NCBI GenBank assembly: GCA_047517625.1 | Contig: JAKZSO010000099.1 | Location: forward strand, 1 to 32,968 | Direction of reading: 5' to 3' | DNA: 32,968 bases | Origin: Alphaproteobacteria bacterium | GTDB taxonomy: Bacteria; Pseudomonadota; Alphaproteobacteria; UBA2966; CAIVPW01 | Shown: in pieces, positions 9,000 to 18,308 of the stretch | Layout: each line of letters starts with the position of its first letter | How positions within the stretch are numbered: the stretch's first letter is position 1 | Notes under the pieces: model-generated | What the model was told of the DNA's origin: nothing | Database searches by the model: none | Seen by the model: only the letters and a program-made list of their open reading frames with translations | Program-made: the position numbers and the translations under genes

Positions 9000-10466
<1,467 letters not shown>

Positions 10467-10472
10467 GACGCC

Positions 10473-10874
10473 ATGGCCGACAAAGTCGCATACGAATTGG
10501 TTTCGCCGGAACGCCTGTTGCGGTCGGGGGAGGCCGATATGGTGGTGGTGCCGGGGACCGAGGGCGACTTTGGCGTTCTGCCGGGCCACGCGCCGGTGAT
10601 TTCCACCGTACGCCCGGGGGTCCTAGAGATTCACGGCGGCGGCGGCGAAGCCGATCAAATTTTCGTCGCTGGCGGCCTGTGCGAAGTCTCAGAGGATCGT
10701 TGCACCGTGTTAGCCGATGATGCGGTGCCGGTGGCCGAGTTGGACCGGGCCGATCTGGAGCAGCGCTTGAAAAATGCCGAAGAAGACTTGGCCGATGCAA
10801 AGACCGACGAAGCCGCTTACAAAGCCTCGACGGCGGCGGCCTTGCTCAAGGACATGCTGCAAGTCGCACGCTAG
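10473..10874 (+). CDS. atpC: ATP synthase F1 subunit epsilon
   Basis: LVSPER, PGTEGDFGVLPGHAP and helical C-terminus; last gene of the F1 operon. Confidence 0.97.
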   Translation: MADKVAYELVSPERLLRSGEADMVVVPGTEGDFGVLPGHAPVISTVRPGVLEIHGGGGEADQIFVAGGLCEVSEDRCTVLADDAVPVAELDRADLEQRLKNAEEDLADAKTDEAAYKASTAAALLKDMLQVAR

Positions 10875-10883
10875 GGCTGGGTA

Positions 10884-11363
10884 TCAGGGAAAGTGCGGGG
10901 AGAATTCCGCCAGCATATCCACATAAGAGTGGCGCTTGAACCACACCACCCGGTCGACCAAGGATTGGCGGTCCAACCATTGGACTTCGCTGAATTCTCG
11001 TTCGTGGACATCCAAATCGAAATCGTCATCGGTTCCAGTAAACCGCATTAGGAACCAAATTTGGGTTTGCCCGCGAAATTGGCCGCCCCACAGTTTGGGG
11101 ATCAGGTCATTCGGAAAATCATAACTTAGCCATTGGGACGTCCGGGCGATCATTTCGGCTTTTGCGGTGCCAACCTCTTCCCACAGCTCCCGCCAGGCAG
11201 CGGTCTCCGGCTCCTCGCCATCATCGATCCCGCCCTGGGGCATTTGCCAGGCGGCGGACGGCATATCGATACGCTTGCCCGCCAAAATGCGGAAATCGGC
11301 ATTGACCAGCATGATGCCGACCCCGGGGCGGTAAACCAGGTCCTCCCGGTTCAGTTCTGCCAC
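10884..11363 (-). CDS. rppH: RNA pyrophosphohydrolase (Nudix)
   Basis: YRPGVGIML; Nudix box WQMPQGGIDDGEEPETAAWRELWEEVG; GQTQIWF. Confidence 0.95.
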   Translation of the reverse strand: MAELNREDLVYRPGVGIMLVNADFRILAGKRIDMPSAAWQMPQGGIDDGEEPETAAWRELWEEVGTAKAEMIARTSQWLSYDFPNDLIPKLWGGQFRGQTQIWFLMRFTGTDDDFDLDVHEREFSEVQWLDRQSLVDRVVWFKRHSYVDMLAEFSPHFP

Positions 11364-11366
11364 GCG

Positions 11367-12857
11367 CTAGTGGCCGCCGCCGGCTGCTGCTTCCTCCGCC
11401 GGATCTCCGCCGCCGGCCACCGCCGAGATCGGCACCAAGGCAATCTCCCGTTCGCTAAGGGTGGCGATCCATTCGGACACCCGTTCGATGGTCACGGGGT
11501 AGGGGAATCCGATGCCCACGGCGGCGCCGGTGGATTCGGCGATGCGTTCCAATTCAAAAAGTCTGGCATCGATGCCGACCCGGGACGCTTGGGCATCCAG
11601 GAACCGGTTGTTGACCACATGGGGCATCCGCATTTCCCCGGCCAATTGTCCGGCGATGCTGTCGGTGGTTTCCATTGCGTCCAAGAACATCAACCCGCGC
11701 GCCTGGATGTCCTCCAGGATCGGGAACATCGCCTCTGGCGAGGTTGTCATTTTCGATCCCATGTAGTTCGTGACCCCCACATACCCGGTAAATCGGCTGA
11801 GCAGCCAATGCAGCCGTTCAATATTTTCGGCCGCCTCGGCTTCGGTCATCAAGGTGTGGGGGCCGGGGTCGTTGGCTGGAAAATCCAAGGGCTCCATGGG
11901 CAATTGCAGCACCACTTCGTGGCCAGCGGCCCGGGCCTGGGCAATCCATTCGGACAAGCTGGGGGCATATGGAACAAATGCCAGGGTCACGGCGCCGGGA
12001 AGCTGTTGAATGGCGGCGGTGGTTGCGGCTGCGGACATCCCCAGGCCACCGATGACGATGGCAATTTTTGGGATGTCTTCGTCCAGTTCGACCGGCCGCG
12101 CATAGACGTGCCAGGGTTGGCGGCCGTCTTCGCCGATCACCGGCAAAAGGCCCACCTGGCCTTGCAGAATCAGACCGGGATCCGGGGCCGGGGCCAAAGC
12201 CTCTGCCGGGTCGGGGACAAAGGGTTCTGGCTCAGGTTCTGGCTCAGGCGCGGGAGGTGGCGGTGGCGGCGGTTCGGGTGGTGCCGGCTCTGGGGCGGGT
12301 TCAGGTTCCGGGGCGGCGGGCGGTACGCCAGGGTCCGGTTCTGGCTCCGGACCCGGTGCTACCTCGCCCAAATCCGCAACAACCGCCTCCTCGGGCGGAG
12401 CGCCTCCTGGTGCCTCCACCGGCGCTTGGGCCGGCTCAGCCGCCGCAACTTCGACCGGGGCGGGTTGCTCGGGCGGGGGTACGGTGGCGTATTTTCCGAT
12501 GGGGCCGGTGGCTTCTTCGTACGCCGCCTCGTCGAAACTGATCACCAGCCAGGTGACAAGACCGACAACCGCCAAAAAAACCACGGCGGAAGTCAGCAGC
12601 AGGGGATTTAAGTAGATCGGCCGCGGGCGTTCGTCTTCTTCGTCGGCCTCGAAGGTTTCGTCGCTGTCATCGAAGTCGAAATTGTCCTCGCCGCCGCCGT
12701 CATCGAAATCAAAGCCGTCGTCATCGCCCTCGCCCGAGCCGCTGGTATCTAGCTTGGCGGCGTCATCGTCGCCGTCAAAGGGATCCTTCCCGCCGAAGTC
12801 CTCGTCCGCCAGGTCGTCTTCGTTTTCAAGGTCGTCGTCGTCGGCTACAGGTGCCAT
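11367..12857 (-). CDS. Divergent polysaccharide deacetylase family protein (DUF610/YibQ-like) with acidic N-terminal tail, one TM helix and Pro-rich linker
   Basis: C-terminal domain motifs IAIVIGGLG, LQLPMEP, DPGPHTL, TNYMGS, FLDA, GFPYPVT; TM segment LLLTSAVVFLAVVGLVTWLVI; located between ctpA genes and rppH. Confidence 0.9.
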   Translation of the reverse strand: MAPVADDDDLENEDDLADEDFGGKDPFDGDDDAAKLDTSGSGEGDDDGFDFDDGGGEDNFDFDDSDETFEADEEDERPRPIYLNPLLLTSAVVFLAVVGLVTWLVISFDEAAYEEATGPIGKYATVPPPEQPAPVEVAAAEPAQAPVEAPGGAPPEEAVVADLGEVAPGPEPEPDPGVPPAAPEPEPAPEPAPPEPPPPPPPAPEPEPEPEPFVPDPAEALAPAPDPGLILQGQVGLLPVIGEDGRQPWHVYARPVELDEDIPKIAIVIGGLGMSAAATTAAIQQLPGAVTLAFVPYAPSLSEWIAQARAAGHEVVLQLPMEPLDFPANDPGPHTLMTEAEAAENIERLHWLLSRFTGYVGVTNYMGSKMTTSPEAMFPILEDIQARGLMFLDAMETTDSIAGQLAGEMRMPHVVNNRFLDAQASRVGIDARLFELERIAESTGAAVGIGFPYPVTIERVSEWIATLSEREIALVPISAVAGGGDPAEEAAAGGGH

Positions 12858-12921
12858 CCCCGGCCGGGCTCAACCCTCCCGGCCGCATTGTCGCCCTCGG
12901 CGGTGGTGCGGCCCACGAAAA

Positions 12922-14208
12922 CTAGTTTGCGGCCGCCCGCTGGTTCAATAGTGCCAAAGCGTGCAGTAAGTCAAAGGCTCGCGCAAGCTGATAGTCCGGC
13001 GTTGCATCTTCGGCCTCGGCTTCTTCTTCCGCCAAATCGTCGCCGCCTTCTTCGGGCACGTCCAAGGCGCCGCGAAGGTCCGCCTCGGTGCGCCTTGGGA
13101 AATTCCGGGTCTGGAGAATGACCAGGGAGGGCTCCACGACAATTTCCGGCTCGATCCCGGCGGCGTCAATCGAAACGCCGTCCGGGGTGTAATAATAGGA
13201 GGTGGTCAGTTGAACGAAGCCGAAATCGCCCATGGGAACAATGGTCTGGGCGGAGCCTTTGCCAAACGTGGTTTCCCCCAGCAAGATTGCCCTGGCGTTT
13301 GATTTCAGGGCACCCGCAACAATTTCCGACGCTGCTGCTGTGCCGCCGTTGACCAACAATACGATCGGCATTCCATTCAAGATATCGCCAGCGTCCGCGA
13401 CCCAATTCTGGCTGTCGTCGTCTGATTTGCCGCGCGAGGACACAATTTCGCCGCCGTCCAAAAACAGGTCGGCGACTTCGATGGCTTGATCGAACGATCC
13501 GCCGGGATTATCGCGCAGATCAAGCACGATTCCTTCAAATCCGTCGCCGACATCCTGTTGAATCGCGGCGATGGCGGCCGCCAAATCAGCGGCGGTGTCG
13601 TCCGTGAACAACGGCACGCGCACGTACCCGGTCACGGCCTGGGCGGTGTGGCTGAGCCGGGGAACCGCCACGATTTCGCGCACCATCGATGCCAGAAACG
13701 GGTCCGTCCCCGGCCGCACCATCGTTAGATCAACCATGGTTCCCGGCGTCCCAATCAAAACATTGATCGTCTGATCCAACGTCATGCCATAAACCGGCGT
13801 GGTGTCGATCTCGACAATCAAGTCCCCTGGCATCAGCCCCAAACGGTCGCCAGGGCCGCCGTCGATGGCCGCAATAATCATGGCAACGCCGCCGTCCATG
13901 GTGACTTCAAGGCCAAGCCCGTCATAGGTGCGAGTATCTTGTTCCTGCATCGCCGCGTATTGCTCGGGCGTCAGGAACCGCGACAAGGGGTCGAGCGCCG
14001 CCAACAGCCCGTCGATCGCGGCGCCGATCAGCGCTTCGTCAGCTACCTCCTCCACGTAGGCCGAGCGCACCCGGTCAAAAGCATCGCCAAACAAGTTCAG
14101 GACTTCGTACGTCTTGGGGTCGGCTGCCTGGCTCAGGGCAGGCGTGGCCAACAATGCCAGCGCCGCCGCCCCGGCGGTCAGGGAATTCCGCAACATCTTC
14201 ATTTTCAT
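12922..14208 (-). CDS. S41A carboxy-terminal protease paralog, predicted catalytically inactive (nucleophile Ser replaced by Ala)
   Basis: Start placed at ATG 14208 (MKMKMLRNS..., signal peptide), 10 nt after the ctpA stop. PDZ loop GLGLEV, LDLRDNPGG, GTAAASE in place of GSASASE, TFGKGSAQ, DYQLARA. Confidence 0.9.
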   Translation of the reverse strand: MKMKMLRNSLTAGAAALALLATPALSQAADPKTYEVLNLFGDAFDRVRSAYVEEVADEALIGAAIDGLLAALDPLSRFLTPEQYAAMQEQDTRTYDGLGLEVTMDGGVAMIIAAIDGGPGDRLGLMPGDLIVEIDTTPVYGMTLDQTINVLIGTPGTMVDLTMVRPGTDPFLASMVREIVAVPRLSHTAQAVTGYVRVPLFTDDTAADLAAAIAAIQQDVGDGFEGIVLDLRDNPGGSFDQAIEVADLFLDGGEIVSSRGKSDDDSQNWVADAGDILNGMPIVLLVNGGTAAASEIVAGALKSNARAILLGETTFGKGSAQTIVPMGDFGFVQLTTSYYYTPDGVSIDAAGIEPEIVVEPSLVILQTRNFPRRTEADLRGALDVPEEGGDDLAEEEAEAEDATPDYQLARAFDLLHALALLNQRAAAN

Positions 14209-14218
14209 ATCCGTCGCC

Positions 14219-15451
14219 TTAATTTGCTGCCAGACCGCCCTGGAACACTGCCATGGCGTGGAGCAAATCCAACGCACGGGAAAGCTGGTAATCGATGGGC
14301 CCGGTGTCAAACGGGACAATTTCCTGGCCATCCGGACCAATTTCCGGGGGTTTCGGGAACAGGGGTTCGATCTGCGCCTGCTCCACCACCACATCCGGGG
14401 TAATGCCGGTGCCCTGAATAGACCGCCCCGAAGGTGTGTAGTACCGCGAGGTGGTCAAGCGCATGGCGCCATAAACTCCCATGGGCATGATGGTTTGCAC
14501 CGAACCTTTGCCGAACGACCTGGTCCCGACGATCAACGCCCGCTGATGATCCTGCAACGCGCCAGCGACAATTTCTGATGCCGAGGCCGAGCCGCCGTTG
14601 ATCAAAACGATGATCGGCTTGCCGTCGGCCAAGTCGCCGCGCCTAGCGGTGTAGCGTTGCACCCGGGATGGGTCCCGGGCCCGGGTCGCGACCACTTCGC
14701 CACGGTTCAGAAAGGCCTCTGTGGCCGCAACCGATTGCTCCAGCAACCCACCGGGGTTGCCGCGCAGGTCCAAAATAACGCCTTCGAAATCGTCACCCAA
14801 TTCGGCTTTCAGTTCGGTCATCGCCCGCTTGATGCCGGATTCGGTTTGTTCAGAGAACGAAGTGATCAGAATATAGGCGGCGTTGCCCTCGACCCGGTAG
14901 CGCACCGAGGCCATGCGAATAACCGCCCGTGTCACCGAAATTGTAAAGGGGTCTGCCACGCCCTCGCGTTCGACGGTTAGTTCGATCGTGCTGTCGACCC
15001 TGCCGCGCATCAGATCGACGGCGTCGGACAAGGCCATGCCGGTAACGTCGTTGCCGTCCAGATGGGTAATGTGATCGCCCGCTTCGACCCCAGCCCTTTC
15101 CGCCGGTGTATCCGGCATTGGCCGAACCACCAGGACAAACCCTTCGTCCATGCGCACCTCGATACCCAGACCGCCGAACTCACCGCTGGTACGTTCCTGC
15201 ATCGCGCCATAGGTCTCGGCATCCATAAAGCTTGAATGGGGATCCAGTGAGGTCAGCATGGAATCGATGGCGGCGTTGACAAGTCGAAGCTCGTTCACTT
15301 CGCCCACGTAGCGGGCGCGGACCAATTCGAATACGTCGCCAAACAAGTTGAGCTGCTCGTACGTAGTTTTGGGGTCCGCCGCGCCGGCGCTTGTGGGGGC
15401 GGTGACAAGCCAAATGGCCGCGACCGCCGAGGTAAGGGCTGCCCTAATCAT
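14219..15451 (-). CDS. ctpA: Carboxy-terminal processing protease, S41A family
   Basis: Signal peptide, LDPHSS, PDZ loop FGGLGIEV, LDLRGNPGG. Catalytic Ser in GSASASE (14582-14584) and Lys in SFGKGSVQ (14507-14509). Confidence 0.95.
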   Translation of the reverse strand: MIRAALTSAVAAIWLVTAPTSAGAADPKTTYEQLNLFGDVFELVRARYVGEVNELRLVNAAIDSMLTSLDPHSSFMDAETYGAMQERTSGEFGGLGIEVRMDEGFVLVVRPMPDTPAERAGVEAGDHITHLDGNDVTGMALSDAVDLMRGRVDSTIELTVEREGVADPFTISVTRAVIRMASVRYRVEGNAAYILITSFSEQTESGIKRAMTELKAELGDDFEGVILDLRGNPGGLLEQSVAATEAFLNRGEVVATRARDPSRVQRYTARRGDLADGKPIIVLINGGSASASEIVAGALQDHQRALIVGTRSFGKGSVQTIMPMGVYGAMRLTTSRYYTPSGRSIQGTGITPDVVVEQAQIEPLFPKPPEIGPDGQEIVPFDTGPIDYQLSRALDLLHAMAVFQGGLAAN

Positions 15452-16737
15452 TTAATGTCCTCTTCTTCCTTAACCACCCGAAATTGGGGCTTGCGACCCA
15501 AATTCGGAATTGCCCGCCGGACCCATGTCCGTCCGGGCCTTGCGAGCCCCCTAAGATCAGCAAACCACGGTGATGGGTTAATTGGGTTCCCGTCCTGGCG
15601 CAGTTCGACATAGACCGTAGACTGGTTGGCATCCCCGCCCCCAGCCACACCAACAGGCTCTCCAGACAGGAGCCATTGGCCCACTTGGGCATCAATGCGG
15701 GAAAGCCCAGCAATCAAGGTATGGTACCCCTCGCCATGGGCGATGATCAAGAGCAGGCCGTAGCTTCTGAACGGCCCAGCAAAGACGATCCGACCCTCAA
15801 AAGGCGCCACCACCCGAGCTTCTTGGCGGGTTGCCACCGTTAATCCCCGGGCGGGCGTCCCAACCTCGTCCAAAGCCCCAAACCGCAGGATGACTGTACC
15901 TTGGACGGGCAATGGCACCTGGCCTCTGGCCTCGGCGAAAGACCGGGACGCCACCGGCGGAAGCGCCAATCCGGCGTTTTCTTCCTCGTTCAGACGGCCG
16001 ATCAATTCTCGGAGATCACCGGCCTGGGTCGCCAAATCGTCCATTCTCAAGCGCTCCGCCGCGCGTTCGGCTTGGGTTTGCTGGCGCTGGGTATTGTTGC
16101 GCTCCAACATCCGCGCCAGGGTTTGGCGCTGGTTTTCCGAGCGGTCGGTGGCAAACACCAGTTCCAATTGTTTTTCAGTAATTTCGTCGCGCAATCCGCG
16201 CACCGCACGAAGTTCGGCGTTCAAAGTATCTGCCCGGTCCCCCAAGGCCGGCAGGACGGCGGCCAGCAGAATCGACGATCGCACCACATCCACCGCCGCC
16301 CCGGGCCCGGCGATCAGCGTTTCCGGGGGTTGCCGGGCAATCCGTGCAAGGCTGGCCAACACCGCCCCCAGTTCCTCCGCCTGACCTTGAACGGCGGCGG
16401 CTTTGACCGATTCTTCCGCCCGCATCCCGGCCAACCGGGTTTCAATGGCCGTCGCTTCGCCCTCCAGCCGCAACACTTCCAGGGCCGCGGTGATTAGACC
16501 GTCGCGTAGATCTTCCAACTCCAGGATCAGGCGCTCCGCTTCCGCGCCGAGCTGCTGCTGGCGCTCCCGGCTTTGGCGCAGCTGTTCTTCAAGCCCCTCG
16601 AGGCGCTCCAATTCGTCCTGGCCGACCGCGGGGTCGGGGGACAGGCCGATCAGGATGGCAAAAACCGCCAAAACACCCAGCCCAACGCCGATCGCGCGGT
16701 GCCCAGCGCCGACCCAGGCCAGGCGCCCGCCGGACAT
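15448..16737 (-). CDS. envC: Murein hydrolase activator EnvC-like protein (coiled coil plus degenerate M23/LytM domain)
   Basis: Hydrophobic N-terminus, long coiled coil, LytM motifs PVQG, VVAPFEGRIVFAGPFRSYG, GEPVG, YVELR...PINP; Zn ligands absent; between gpmI and ctpA. Confidence 0.88.
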   Translation of the reverse strand: MSGGRLAWVGAGHRAIGVGLGVLAVFAILIGLSPDPAVGQDELERLEGLEEQLRQSRERQQQLGAEAERLILELEDLRDGLITAALEVLRLEGEATAIETRLAGMRAEESVKAAAVQGQAEELGAVLASLARIARQPPETLIAGPGAAVDVVRSSILLAAVLPALGDRADTLNAELRAVRGLRDEITEKQLELVFATDRSENQRQTLARMLERNNTQRQQTQAERAAERLRMDDLATQAGDLRELIGRLNEEENAGLALPPVASRSFAEARGQVPLPVQGTVILRFGALDEVGTPARGLTVATRQEARVVAPFEGRIVFAGPFRSYGLLLIIAHGEGYHTLIAGLSRIDAQVGQWLLSGEPVGVAGGGDANQSTVYVELRQDGNPINPSPWFADLRGLARPGRTWVRRAIPNLGRKPQFRVVKEEEDIK

Positions 16738-18308
16738 TACGCCTTGGCCGCGCCGGGCTTTGTGCTGCTGGTGACCAGCAGGGAGTGCCCGGTCATGTCC
16801 TGGGGCTGGTCAAGGCCCAAAAACGGCAGCAACGTCGGCGCAATGTCGGCCAGGCGTCCGCTGGCCAGCCCGGTGATGTGCGACGGCGCATTGACCAGAA
16901 TGGCGGGAACCGGGAATGTGGTGTGGGCAGTGTGGGGCTCGCCGGTGTCGGGGTCCCGCATCAGCTCGGCATTGCCGTGGTCGGCTGTGACAAGCAGCAC
17001 GCCGCCAGCCTGTGTTACTGTTGTCTCCAATCGGCCTAAGCATTGATCCACGGACTCCACGGCTTGGACCGCCGCCCGCAAATCACCGCTGTGGCCCACC
17101 ATGTCGGCATTGGCATAATTGACCAAAATGAAATCATAGATATCCGACTGAATTGCCTCTTCCAGACGGTCGGTCAGTTCGGGCGCCGACATCGACGGTT
17201 TTTTGTCATAGGTGCGAACCTTGGGCGATGGCACCAGGACCCGGTCTTCGCCAGTAAATACCTTTTCATCGCCGCCATTAAAAAAGAACGTGACGTGGGC
17301 GTACTTTTCCGTTTCGGCGATGCGCAATTGACGATGGCCGGCCCGGGCCACCAATTGGCCCATGGTATTTTCGATTGGCTGGTGGGGGAACAGGGTGATC
17401 ATCAAATCGCTGAGGCGGTCGGAATAGGCAGCCATACCGGCGGCGGCCGCGAACTTGATCTGGCGGTCCCGGGCAAAGCCTGAAAAATTCGGCTCCATCA
17501 GCGCGCTCAAAATCTGCCGCGCCCGGTCGGCGCGGAAATTGACCATCAAAAATCCGTCGCCATCGGCCATGCCGTCATAATCGCCAATGATCGTCGGCTG
17601 CAGGAATTCATCGGTTTCGTCTCTGGCGTAGCCGGCTTCGATGGCGCCGCGGGCGGATGTGGCTTCCAGGCCGTGGCCCTCGGCGATGGCCCGATACCCG
17701 CGCGAGGCCCGGCCCCAGCGATTGTCCCGGTCCATGGTGAAATAGCGTCCGGTGACCGTGGCGACGTCGATCCCCGCGGTGCCTTTCAATTCGCCTTCGA
17801 TCCAATCCAAATATTGCAGGGCGCTTTGGGGCGGTGCGTCCCGGCCATCGGTGAAAATGTGAAACAGCACCGGGATGCCGTGGCCGGCAACCGCATGGGC
17901 CACATGGGCCAAGTGGCTCATATGCGAATGGACGCCGCCGGGGGACAGCAGGCCCATCAGATGACAGATTCCGCCGCTGTCTTTCAGCGCCACGACAAAC
18001 TGGTTCATGCCGTCGTTGTCGGCGAAGCCGTCGTCGGTGGCGGCGTCGATGCGGGGGAGCACTTGCTCGACGGTGCGCCCAGCCCCCAGGTTCATATGCC
18101 CGACTTCGGAATTCCCCATCTGGCCTTCTGGCAGGCCAACTTCCGAAGATGACGTCGCCAGAAACCCCGTGGGGCAGGACCGCATCAGCCGGTCGTAATT
18201 CGGCGTGCCCGCAACGGCGATGGCATTGTCTTTCGGATCTTCGCGGTGGCCCCAACCATCCAGCACACACAGGACGACCGGCCGCCGCACCAGGGACTTA
18301 GCACTCAT
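16737..18308 (-). CDS. gpmI: 2,3-bisphosphoglycerate-independent phosphoglycerate mutase
   Basis: LDGWG, GQMGNSEVGH, AETEKYAHVTFF, NADMVGHSG, TADHGNAE. Confidence 0.98.
   Translation of the reverse strand: MSAKSLVRRPVVLCVLDGWGHREDPKDNAIAVAGTPNYDRLMRSCPTGFLATSSSEVGLPEGQMGNSEVGHMNLGAGRTVEQVLPRIDAATDDGFADNDGMNQFVVALKDSGGICHLMGLLSPGGVHSHMSHLAHVAHAVAGHGIPVLFHIFTDGRDAPPQSALQYLDWIEGELKGTAGIDVATVTGRYFTMDRDNRWGRASRGYRAIAEGHGLEATSARGAIEAGYARDETDEFLQPTIIGDYDGMADGDGFLMVNFRADRARQILSALMEPNFSGFARDRQIKFAAAAGMAAYSDRLSDLMITLFPHQPIENTMGQLVARAGHRQLRIAETEKYAHVTFFFNGGDEKVFTGEDRVLVPSPKVRTYDKKPSMSAPELTDRLEEAIQSDIYDFILVNYANADMVGHSGDLRAAVQAVESVDQCLGRLETTVTQAGGVLLVTADHGNAELMRDPDTGEPHTAHTTFPVPAILVNAPSHITGLASGRLADIAPTLLPFLGLDQPQDMTGHSLLVTSSTKPGAAKA

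Follow-up and report, generated by a model that had tools for sequence, protein, structure and literature searches.

The DNA analysed here is a 32,968-nt stretch of contig JAKZSO010000099.1 (the window), and all gene positions are given on the whole of it. Its minus strand carries two adjacent genes for C-terminal processing proteases (CtpA) of peptidase family S41, called copy 1 and copy 2 in the following. Copy 1 (14219-15451, P0002, 410 aa) encodes a CtpA with an intact active site that lacks the trans-interacting loop. Copy 2 (12922-14208, P0001, 428 aa, ATG at 14208) encodes an S41 pseudoprotease for which secretion is predicted. The TAA of copy 1 and the ATG of copy 2 are separated by a spacer of 10 nt (14209-14218). 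From the sequences and from complex models, we favour, with some reserve, a hard-wired asymmetric CtpA hetero-oligomer in which copy 1 would be the catalytic subunit and copy 2 a non-catalytic subunit donating the trans-interacting loop. A preliminary description of the window had reported two colinear S41 genes 10 nt apart, both with a signal peptide, a PDZ and a protease domain, and a Ser in copy 1 against an Ala in copy 2, each 25 codons before the Lys. Every coordinate in it was correct, and the features themselves are borne out by the data below.

Both proteins match the Pfam families Peptidase_S41, PDZ and CtpB_N-like and pass TIGR00225, the prc subfamily model. For copy 2, the scores are 162.3 bits with PF03572 (cut-off 24), 35.4 bits with PDZ_6 (cut-off 27), and 255.1 versus 218.6 with TIGR00225. 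Judged by its sequence, copy 2 is a member of family S41 by descent and belongs to the type of Pseudomonas aeruginosa CtpA. The two copies share 41% identity over the full length, and BLASTP puts GGTAAASE of copy 2 on GGSASASE of copy 1. They are the only S41 genes in the source genome, the assembly of which is fragmented (228 contigs). By eye, both N-termini resemble Sec signals, as a hydrophobic stretch is followed by AGA/AD in copy 1 and by SQA/AD in copy 2, where the signal-peptide-like region covers residues 1-28 (14125-14208, ...ALSQA/AD). A hydrophobic N-terminus ahead of a conserved mature start is present in 9/9 copy 2 orthologues.

All 10 species genomes of the family were searched, and 9 of them could be assessed for the pair. 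In all nine, copy 1 and copy 2 are neighbours on the same strand, 10 to about 70 nt apart; in the tenth genome (G005, 79% complete), copy 1 is cut off by the contig end. Loci outside the family carry a single ctpA, the number that the preliminary description had called usual. Copy 1 orthologues read GSASASE...FGKG in 9/9 genomes. The nucleophile and base motifs of copy 2 are GTAAASE and FGKG in G000 and G001, GTAG[PA]AE and FK[RK]G in five genomes of another genus, GTAGAAE and FGLG in G002, and GTASVAE and FGKG in G003. Among the 120 matches listed in a search of 5.8 billion clusters, 33 were copy 2-like (P0003-P0034 and P0038), and 32 of these lack the Ser; the remaining 87 have both Ser and Lys. 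Among the best 150 matches to copy 2 in 401 genomes of the class, none from outside the family exceeded 392 bits (48% identity). Two of the 401 genomes, G261 and G062, are unpublished and contribute to this tally alone. In a 50%-identity library, the copy 2 clade is one representative (693 bits), after which the next match drops to 452 bits. Automatic annotation gives these inactive proteins the name “carboxyl-terminal processing protease” or “S41 family peptidase.”

The catalytic positions were read directly from the sequence. In copy 1, the nucleophile Ser (TCG, 14582-14584) lies in GSASASE, 25 codons before the Lys of FGKG (AAA, 14507-14509). In copy 2, the equivalent position in GTAAASE is Ala292 (GCA, 13333-13335), 25 codons before Lys317 at the general-base position (AAA, 13258-13260). 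In alignments to P. aeruginosa CtpA chains, Ala292 coincides with the engineered S302A, native numbering being the chain index + 33 by our own count. Active peptidases of S41 have a Ser nucleophile 25 residues before the Lys, and copy 2 is without it. As to the helper residues, copy 2 keeps the Gln-331 equivalent, and the His-84 equivalent is replaced by Leu75 (13984-13986), giving LDPLS in place of LDPHS. In P. aeruginosa CtpA, S302A and K327A abolish activity, and H84A lowers it moderately (PMC11021448; this source as well as PMC8764530, PMC7966870, PMC4619724, and PMC12772221 are cited from excerpts).

To describe the clade, sites were counted in P. aeruginosa CtpA numbering over 41 copy 2 rows (9 genomic and 32 from databases; 39 distinct), 9 copy 1 rows, and 25 single-copy CtpAs of other families. 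At S302, copy 2 has Gly in 27 rows, Ala in 12, and Ser in 2, so that the nucleophile is absent from 39/41. The base position K327 is occupied by Lys in 16 copy 2 rows, Arg in 12, Met in 6, Leu in 5, and Ala and Asp in one each, and the Lys is thus absent from 25/41. At H84, the copy 2 residues are Leu (13), Glu (8), Asp (8), Asn (5), His (4), Tyr (2), and Gln (1). Copy 1 and the single-copy CtpAs keep Ser, Lys, and His at these three positions in every row (9/9 and 25/25). The Gln equivalent to Q331 is found in 41/41 copy 2 rows and in 9/9 copy 1 rows, and copy 1 also keeps the F325 equivalent.

The loop of CtpA has been described in structural work on the P. aeruginosa enzyme. CtpA dimerises by its N-terminal helices, and a C-terminal strand and helix join the dimers into a trimer of dimers (PMC8764530). 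LbcA is a tetratricopeptide-repeat lipoprotein that binds CtpA between the two H1 helices. In the LbcA-bound complex, activation is confined to the front protomer of each dimer; the loop 376-411 of an inactive protomer from the neighbouring dimer inserts beside the active site, where E385' bonds His-84 (PMC11021448). The substitutions E385A and L388A lower the activity, Pro-147 is a loop contact on the inactive PDZ domain, and the loop is disordered in the crystal of CtpA alone (PMC11021448).

In copy 2, the trans-interacting-loop motif FPRRTEADLRGALD is located at residues 370-383 (13060-13101), and E375 and L378 correspond in the alignment to E385 and L388 of P. aeruginosa CtpA. The motif reads FPRRTEAxLRGALD over the clade, with the E385 and L388 equivalents in 41/41 rows. 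In the single-copy CtpAs, these positions are Glu in 25/25 and Leu in 24 (Phe in one). Copy 1 has neither residue in any of its 9 rows. At the place where single-copy CtpAs have the motif, a Pro-rich linker is found (residues 358-386, 14294-14380); a Pro/Ala-rich linker without the motif is present in 9/9 copy 1 rows, in which His-84, Phe-325, and the triad are kept. The P147 equivalent is Pro in all 41 copy 2 rows, Pro in 5, Asp in 2, and Ser in 2 of the copy 1 rows, and Pro in 12 of the single-copy CtpAs, the other 13 having different residues.

The elements for assembly are kept as well. Copy 2 aligns over its full length to 7rqh and 8sxe from residue 31, dimerisation helices included, and its residues 29-80 (13969-14124) align to the N-terminal dimerisation region of CtpA. 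The C-terminal dimerisation helix, which includes DYQLARAFDLLHALALL (12937-12996), aligns to the CtpA helix bearing L426 and L430. Each of these two positions is Leu in 38/41 copy 2 rows; in copy 1, they are Leu in 8 and Met in 1, and Leu in 7 and Met in 2, respectively. Mean identity within the sets follows the same division. For the loop motif, it is 81% in copy 2, 18% in copy 1, and 44% in the single-copy CtpAs; for the C-terminal helix, 77, 64, and 61%; for the N-terminal dimerisation region, 73, 72, and 71%; for the PDZ domain, 60, 69, and 69%; and for the core, 56, 81, and 69%. The loop and helix identities together with the site counts argue for complementary loss between the two copies: on the alignments, each copy is without what the other keeps, and copy 2 is constrained most where CtpA protomers contact one another.

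Structure prediction was carried out for the pair and for copy 2 alone. A two-chain model of the mature proteins gave an interface score (ipSAE, interaction prediction score from aligned errors) of 0.70 (runs 0.70, 0.68, and 0.70), and the best of three controls reached 0.02. The model passes a mark that is reached by 58 of 80 solved complexes and by 2 of 110 mismatched pairs. At least 96% of the contacts are shared between the runs, and the partner has a pLDDT (predicted local distance difference test) of at least 82. The modelled interface consists of the N-terminal helices and core contacts, as in solved CtpA and CtpB dimers. The AlphaFold2 (AF2) model of copy 2 has a pLDDT of 74 and a predicted template modelling (TM) score of 0.73; low confidence is seen at residues 1-55 and 361-403, the latter covering the loop; the PDZ domain and the core are predicted confidently, and a helix is placed at 406-427. 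Its best fold match is 8sxh_B, with TM scores of 0.71/0.76. This model resembles the B chains of 8sxe, 8sxf, and 8sxh (TM 0.70-0.71 on the query) rather than the A chains (0.51-0.52) and fits resting over active CtpB. No weight was given to either match as conformational evidence because the copy 1 control was poor (pLDDT 61, pTM 0.42) and because AF2 may favour resting states.

The authenticity of the Ala codon was followed in public sequencing runs. The stretch is contained in 20 runs from nine studies, and contigs from four of them were compared along it. Contigs of X1 and X3 (two studies) span the whole stretch and show three differences, at 14044, 14056, and 14995; both are DNA-type runs, possibly the source of this DNA and hence not necessarily independent. 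A contig of the RNA library X15 spans 12900-13934 with three other differences. The Ala codon at 13333-13335 is unchanged in the contigs of X1, X3, and X15, so that the earlier suggestion to check this codon has been followed at the level of contigs. Independent support comes from the sister species G001, which has GCG (Ala) at the nucleophile codon. As the codon recurs in contigs of other runs and Ala recurs in the sister species, the Ala at this position is not an assembly error. The X15 contig also has 13259 T>C, which changes AAA (Lys) to AGA (Arg) at Lys317; this is a single contig with a depth of 9.8. An Arg at the base position fits the freedom of this position throughout the clade, in which 12/41 rows have Arg. 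The junction between the two genes is crossed by metatranscriptomic contigs from two studies, namely record 7 of X15 (13936-14760) and record 12 of X16 (14092-14322). Separately, one RNA run labelled sponge metagenome contains 0.21 of the words of the stretch.

Selection was estimated on the mature regions as the ratio of nonsynonymous to synonymous substitution rates (dN/dS), by the Nei-Gojobori method (NG86) on trimmed frames. For copy 2, the ratio between G000 and G001 is 0.079 (dN 0.095, 399 codons), with a dS of 1.20 that is near saturation. The ten pairs compared in the other genus give 0.18-0.33 with a median of 0.24. The copy 1 values are 0.026 for G000-G001 and 0.07-0.22, median 0.18, for the other genus. 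None of the 39 distinct copy 2 sequences contains a stop, and the alignment has 73 invariant columns. The range of 0.08-0.33 indicates that copy 2 is under clear, somewhat relaxed purifying selection. The proposal that copy 2 is a diverged, intact, and retained pseudoprotease is upheld by these values and by the loss of the Ser in 39/41 rows; the proposed comparison of related genomes has thereby given a conserved nucleophile loss and a dN/dS below 1.

The origin of the pair was addressed with a quick maximum-likelihood tree of 75 rows, which is unrooted. Copy 2 forms one clade on a long stem (support 100 in the Shimodaira-Hasegawa-like approximate likelihood ratio test, SH-aLRT), and copy 1 of the family forms another (99). 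A branch with support 96 splits the single-copy CtpAs of other families from copy 1 and copy 2. Provided that the tree is rooted among the other families, the duplication dates to the base of this family or earlier, and copy 2 changed faster afterwards. In the lineage of G003 (L010, from position 1422) and P0027, copy 2 still has the Ser (TCG), the Lys, and the Gln, but Glu at the His-84 position. In the free tree, this pair is nested beside the Gly clade, which implies at least two changes. A tree with all 39 Ser-less rows together is better by 4.0 log-likelihood units (p-AU, from the approximately unbiased test, 0.584). As it fits slightly better, one loss of the Ser and several losses are both compatible with the data. 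The Ser codon of G003 is TCG, as in copy 1, and the copy 2 codons are GCA or GCG for Ala and GGC or GGA for Gly; a path from Ser over Ala to Gly is possible on these codons. The G003/P0027 lineage is possibly an intermediate stage. Copy 1 of G003 is without the loop and its copy 2 without the His, which suggests that division of labour preceded the loss of the nucleophile.

The following mechanism would account for these observations. The ctpA gene would have been duplicated at the level of the family, and the copies would then have undergone complementary degeneration. Copy 1 would have retained His, Ser, Lys, and Gln and lost the trans-interacting loop. Copy 2 would have given up the nucleophile, the His and, in the majority of lineages, the Lys, with its dimerisation elements and loop remaining under strong constraint. 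Both proteins are likely exported and may form copy 1:copy 2 heterodimers via the N-terminal helices, with copy 1 contributing the sole active site. The heterodimers would join via the C-terminal helices, and the loop of copy 2 would extend across the subunit boundary to His72 and Phe313 next to the copy 1 active site. Copy 2 would thus be the scaffold and loop donor of a periplasmic CtpA protease. The near-invariant Phe-325, Gln-331, oxyanion glycines, and PDZ GLG loop of copy 2 leave room for an additional role in holding the substrate. The preliminary description had left the function of copy 2 between hetero-oligomer subunit, adaptor, and inhibitor. The evidence favours the first; the complementary loss of loop and active site, as read from the sequences, is a mechanism that it did not contain. 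We also consider it close to an even chance, if slightly below it, that the asymmetry which LbcA induces in CtpA has here been frozen into two genes by complementary degeneration.

Several points weigh against the hetero-oligomer. Homodimers of CtpA and CtpB have been solved, so the pass of the complex model may stem from these structures; it shows likeness rather than binding, and the model does not compare hetero- with homodimers. The RNA-library contigs over both genes are a weak hint of expression and no proof of transcription or of a single transcript. Loop mutants of CtpA lose only little activity, and the authors propose other roles for the loop (PMC11021448). The near-invariant F325, Q331, oxyanion, and PDZ sites of copy 2 equally fit peptide binding that is independent of copy 1. 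Catalytic death is not universal in copy 2, as the lineage of G003 and P0027 keeps Ser and Lys. The dS between G000 and G001 is near saturation, and the tree comes from a quick search and has no root. Finally, no LbcA-like activator was identified in genome searches for tetratricopeptide repeats (TPR) and among one candidate, with no LbcA sequence used as the query. The source genome gave 65 matches to TPR_19 and 83 to TPR_16. A secreted-looking TPR protein of 829 residues on contig C193 of G000 (L060:661-3147, plus strand) has generic TPR matches in the PDB, with LbcA outside the best 60.

An unlikely alternative is that copy 2 acts on its own as a binder of peptides or C-termini, either as a substrate trap that shields targets or as an adaptor, instead of being a stoichiometric subunit. 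The change from Ser to Ala is the classic trapping substitution, and S302A has been used in this way (PMC8764530). In the copy 2 clade, F325, Q331, the Glu of the helix, the oxyanion Gly-Gly, and the GLG loop of the PDZ domain are near-invariant, and the AF2 core is confident (pLDDT 80-97 over residues 110-360). A binder of this kind does not account for the loop motif and both dimerisation elements being the best conserved parts of copy 2, and it leaves the loss of the loop from copy 1 in 9/9 genomes unexplained. Moreover, the Lys has also been lost from 25/41 rows, and the core is the least conserved region.

We give still less credence to a job of copy 2 that is unrelated to copy 1, such as a scaffold for the EnvC- and YibQ-like proteins or the binding of small ligands as in IRBP (retinol-binding protein 3). 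The question turns in part on the neighbouring genes, which are arranged head to tail on the minus strand as gpmI, envC-like, copy 1, copy 2, yibQ-like, and NUDIX. The tightly packed run begins with a gpmI-like phosphoglycerate mutase gene (16737-18308; Pfam Metalloenzyme and iPGM_N), the final base of which overlaps the start of the EnvC-like gene (15448-16737). The EnvC-like protein has a C-terminal M23/LytM domain (Pfam Peptidase_M23 at residues 296-388), and its stop overlaps the start of copy 1 in ATGA at 15448-15451. Downstream of copy 2 are a YibQ-like divergent polysaccharide deacetylase (11367-12857; PF04748 at residues 267-480) and, as the final gene, a NUDIX hydrolase (10884-11363; Pfam NUDIX). 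The order envC-ctpA-ctpA2-yibQ is conserved, with envC upstream of copy 1 in 8 of 9 other family genomes and yibQ downstream of copy 2 in 6 family genomes, the other loci ending earlier. IRBP demonstrates that a Ser-less S41 fold can be re-used (PMC10120077), its chain 9frx matches copy 2 with an E value of 1.6e-13, and other S41 homologues without the Ser occur as fusions with TPR or caspase-like domains. However, the regions of strongest constraint are those that contact other protomers in CtpA. At the level at which synteny was compared, the genes flanking single-copy loci in other families are the same as here, and hence the neighbours do not call for a second CtpA.

Some further features of the locus were recorded. 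The N-terminal part of the YibQ-like protein is unusually long: it opens with about 80 strongly acidic residues rich in Asp and Glu, continues with a single hydrophobic segment, and reaches the deacetylase-like domain through a Pro/Glu/Ala-rich linker (PEPEPAPEP...). Just upstream of the cluster, on the opposite strand, open frames resembling the beta and epsilon subunits of ATP synthase were recognised from their translations (9036-10874, plus strand). Scans for promoters and terminators gave nothing above chance around the genes, and no such site lies on the minus strand in the 10-nt spacer. Searches of the window for tRNA genes and Rfam families gave no match.

It is very improbable that copy 2 is still a protease which uses another nucleophile, for example Ser294, or another mechanism. 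Ser294, Lys317, and Gln321 are all present in copy 2 of the source genome, and the copy 2 proteins of G003 and P0027 retain Ser and Lys. The preliminary description had named the Ser two residues downstream as a possible rescue. At this position (S302 + 2), copy 2 has Ala in 32 rows, Ser in 6, Thr in 2, and Gly in 1, compared with Ser in 9/9 copy 1 rows and Ser in 24 and Ala in 1 of the single-copy CtpAs. Thus, it offers no substitute nucleophile. The Lys is gone from 25/41 rows and the His from 37/41, and in P. aeruginosa CtpA, S302A abolishes the activity (PMC11021448).

An assembly or sequencing artefact or a neutrally drifting pseudogene, for which one could point to the single base between TCA and GCA and to the 228 contigs of the assembly, is in our judgement already refuted by the recurrence of the codon in contigs of other runs and of Ala in the sister species, and by the 39 distinct full-length sequences without stops, their dN/dS of 0.08-0.33, and the 73 invariant columns.

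Loss of catalytic residues was also noticed in more distant relatives. Of 149 other nearest cluster representatives at 50% identity, 13 lack Ser and/or Lys (P0149, P0155, P0166, P0176, P0188, P0192, P0212, P0220, P0242, P0251, P0255, P0258, and P0266), 10 of them the Ser. They are named “carboxyl-terminal processing protease” in their sources. Ten of the 13 were scanned for domains; TPR repeats were seen at the N-terminus of P0149 and P0166 and a caspase-like (C14) domain at the C-terminus of P0266. A relative of P0220 with 54% identity is a 475-residue open frame in a metagenome-assembled genome record (L043:3875-5299, plus strand). No second ctpA was found within 4 kb upstream of it, and the contig ends 421 nt downstream, which makes this case uninformative. 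Dead S41 domains may be more common than annotation suggests, and the pair described here flags automatic annotation that labels dead copies as proteases or peptidases.

C-terminal processing proteases control cell-wall hydrolases and envelope integrity, and their activation is only now emerging from one cryo-electron microscopy study. In a homomeric enzyme, every mutation hits both protomers, and questions about single protomers are therefore confounded. A gene pair that splits the catalytic from the loop-donating protomer would be a clean system for the roles of the second protomer, the loop, and the hexamer. If the proposed hetero-oligomer is real, it would be evidence from nature that selection maintains a non-catalytic function in the resting protomer, and the pair would illustrate in condensed form how the subunits of a homo-oligomer can subfunctionalise. 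Inactive S41 paralogues would in that case recur as periplasmic protease subunits or regulators, a class that has been overlooked.

The preliminary description knew of no described system of a dead and an active CtpA, and in the full-text literature, with subscription papers outside the scope of the search, we likewise found no bacterial S41 pseudoprotease and no mixed CtpA complex. The nearest known system is CtpA-LbcA of P. aeruginosa (PDB 7rpq, 7rqh, and 8sxe-8sxh), the best full-length match to copy 2 (E 2e-83). Copy 2 shares with this CtpA the N-terminal dimerisation helices, the PDZ domain, the cap and core, the loop, and the C-terminal helix with its two zipper leucines. In P. aeruginosa, however, both kinds of protomer come from a single gene and LbcA brings about the asymmetry (PMC11021448), whereas two genes are present here and an LbcA-like partner was not identified.

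Other systems resemble the pair in part. IRBP is a secreted S41 fold without the nucleophile and under selection (PMC10120077; PDB 9frx), but it is eukaryotic, consists of four tandem modules, binds retinoids, and has no active S41 partner (PMC10120077). In Clostridioides difficile, CspC and CspA are pseudoprotease paralogues that control the related active serine protease CspB (PMC4619724). In contrast to the CtpA pair, they belong to the subtilisin family, act in spore germination signalling, and are not known as a symmetric oligomer split into two genes. The degenerate LytM factors EnvC and NlpD are dead members of a hydrolase family that regulate the cell wall from the periplasm (PMC12772221), and an EnvC-like gene lies upstream here; unlike copy 2, they are of the M23 family and activate unrelated amidases, not an active paralogue of their own (PMC12772221).

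ClpR of cyanobacteria and plastids is a dead paralogue of the self-compartmentalising serine protease ClpP and enters a mixed core with active ClpP subunits (PMC7966870), and for copy 1 and copy 2, co-assembly is so far modelled. ClpR differs in its unrelated fold (S14), its cytoplasmic location, and its ATP-dependent partner, and a complementary loss in the active subunit is not described in the excerpts of PMC7966870. By analogy, the mode of action of copy 2 would come closest to that of the inactive subunits in mixed proteases such as ClpR/ClpP.

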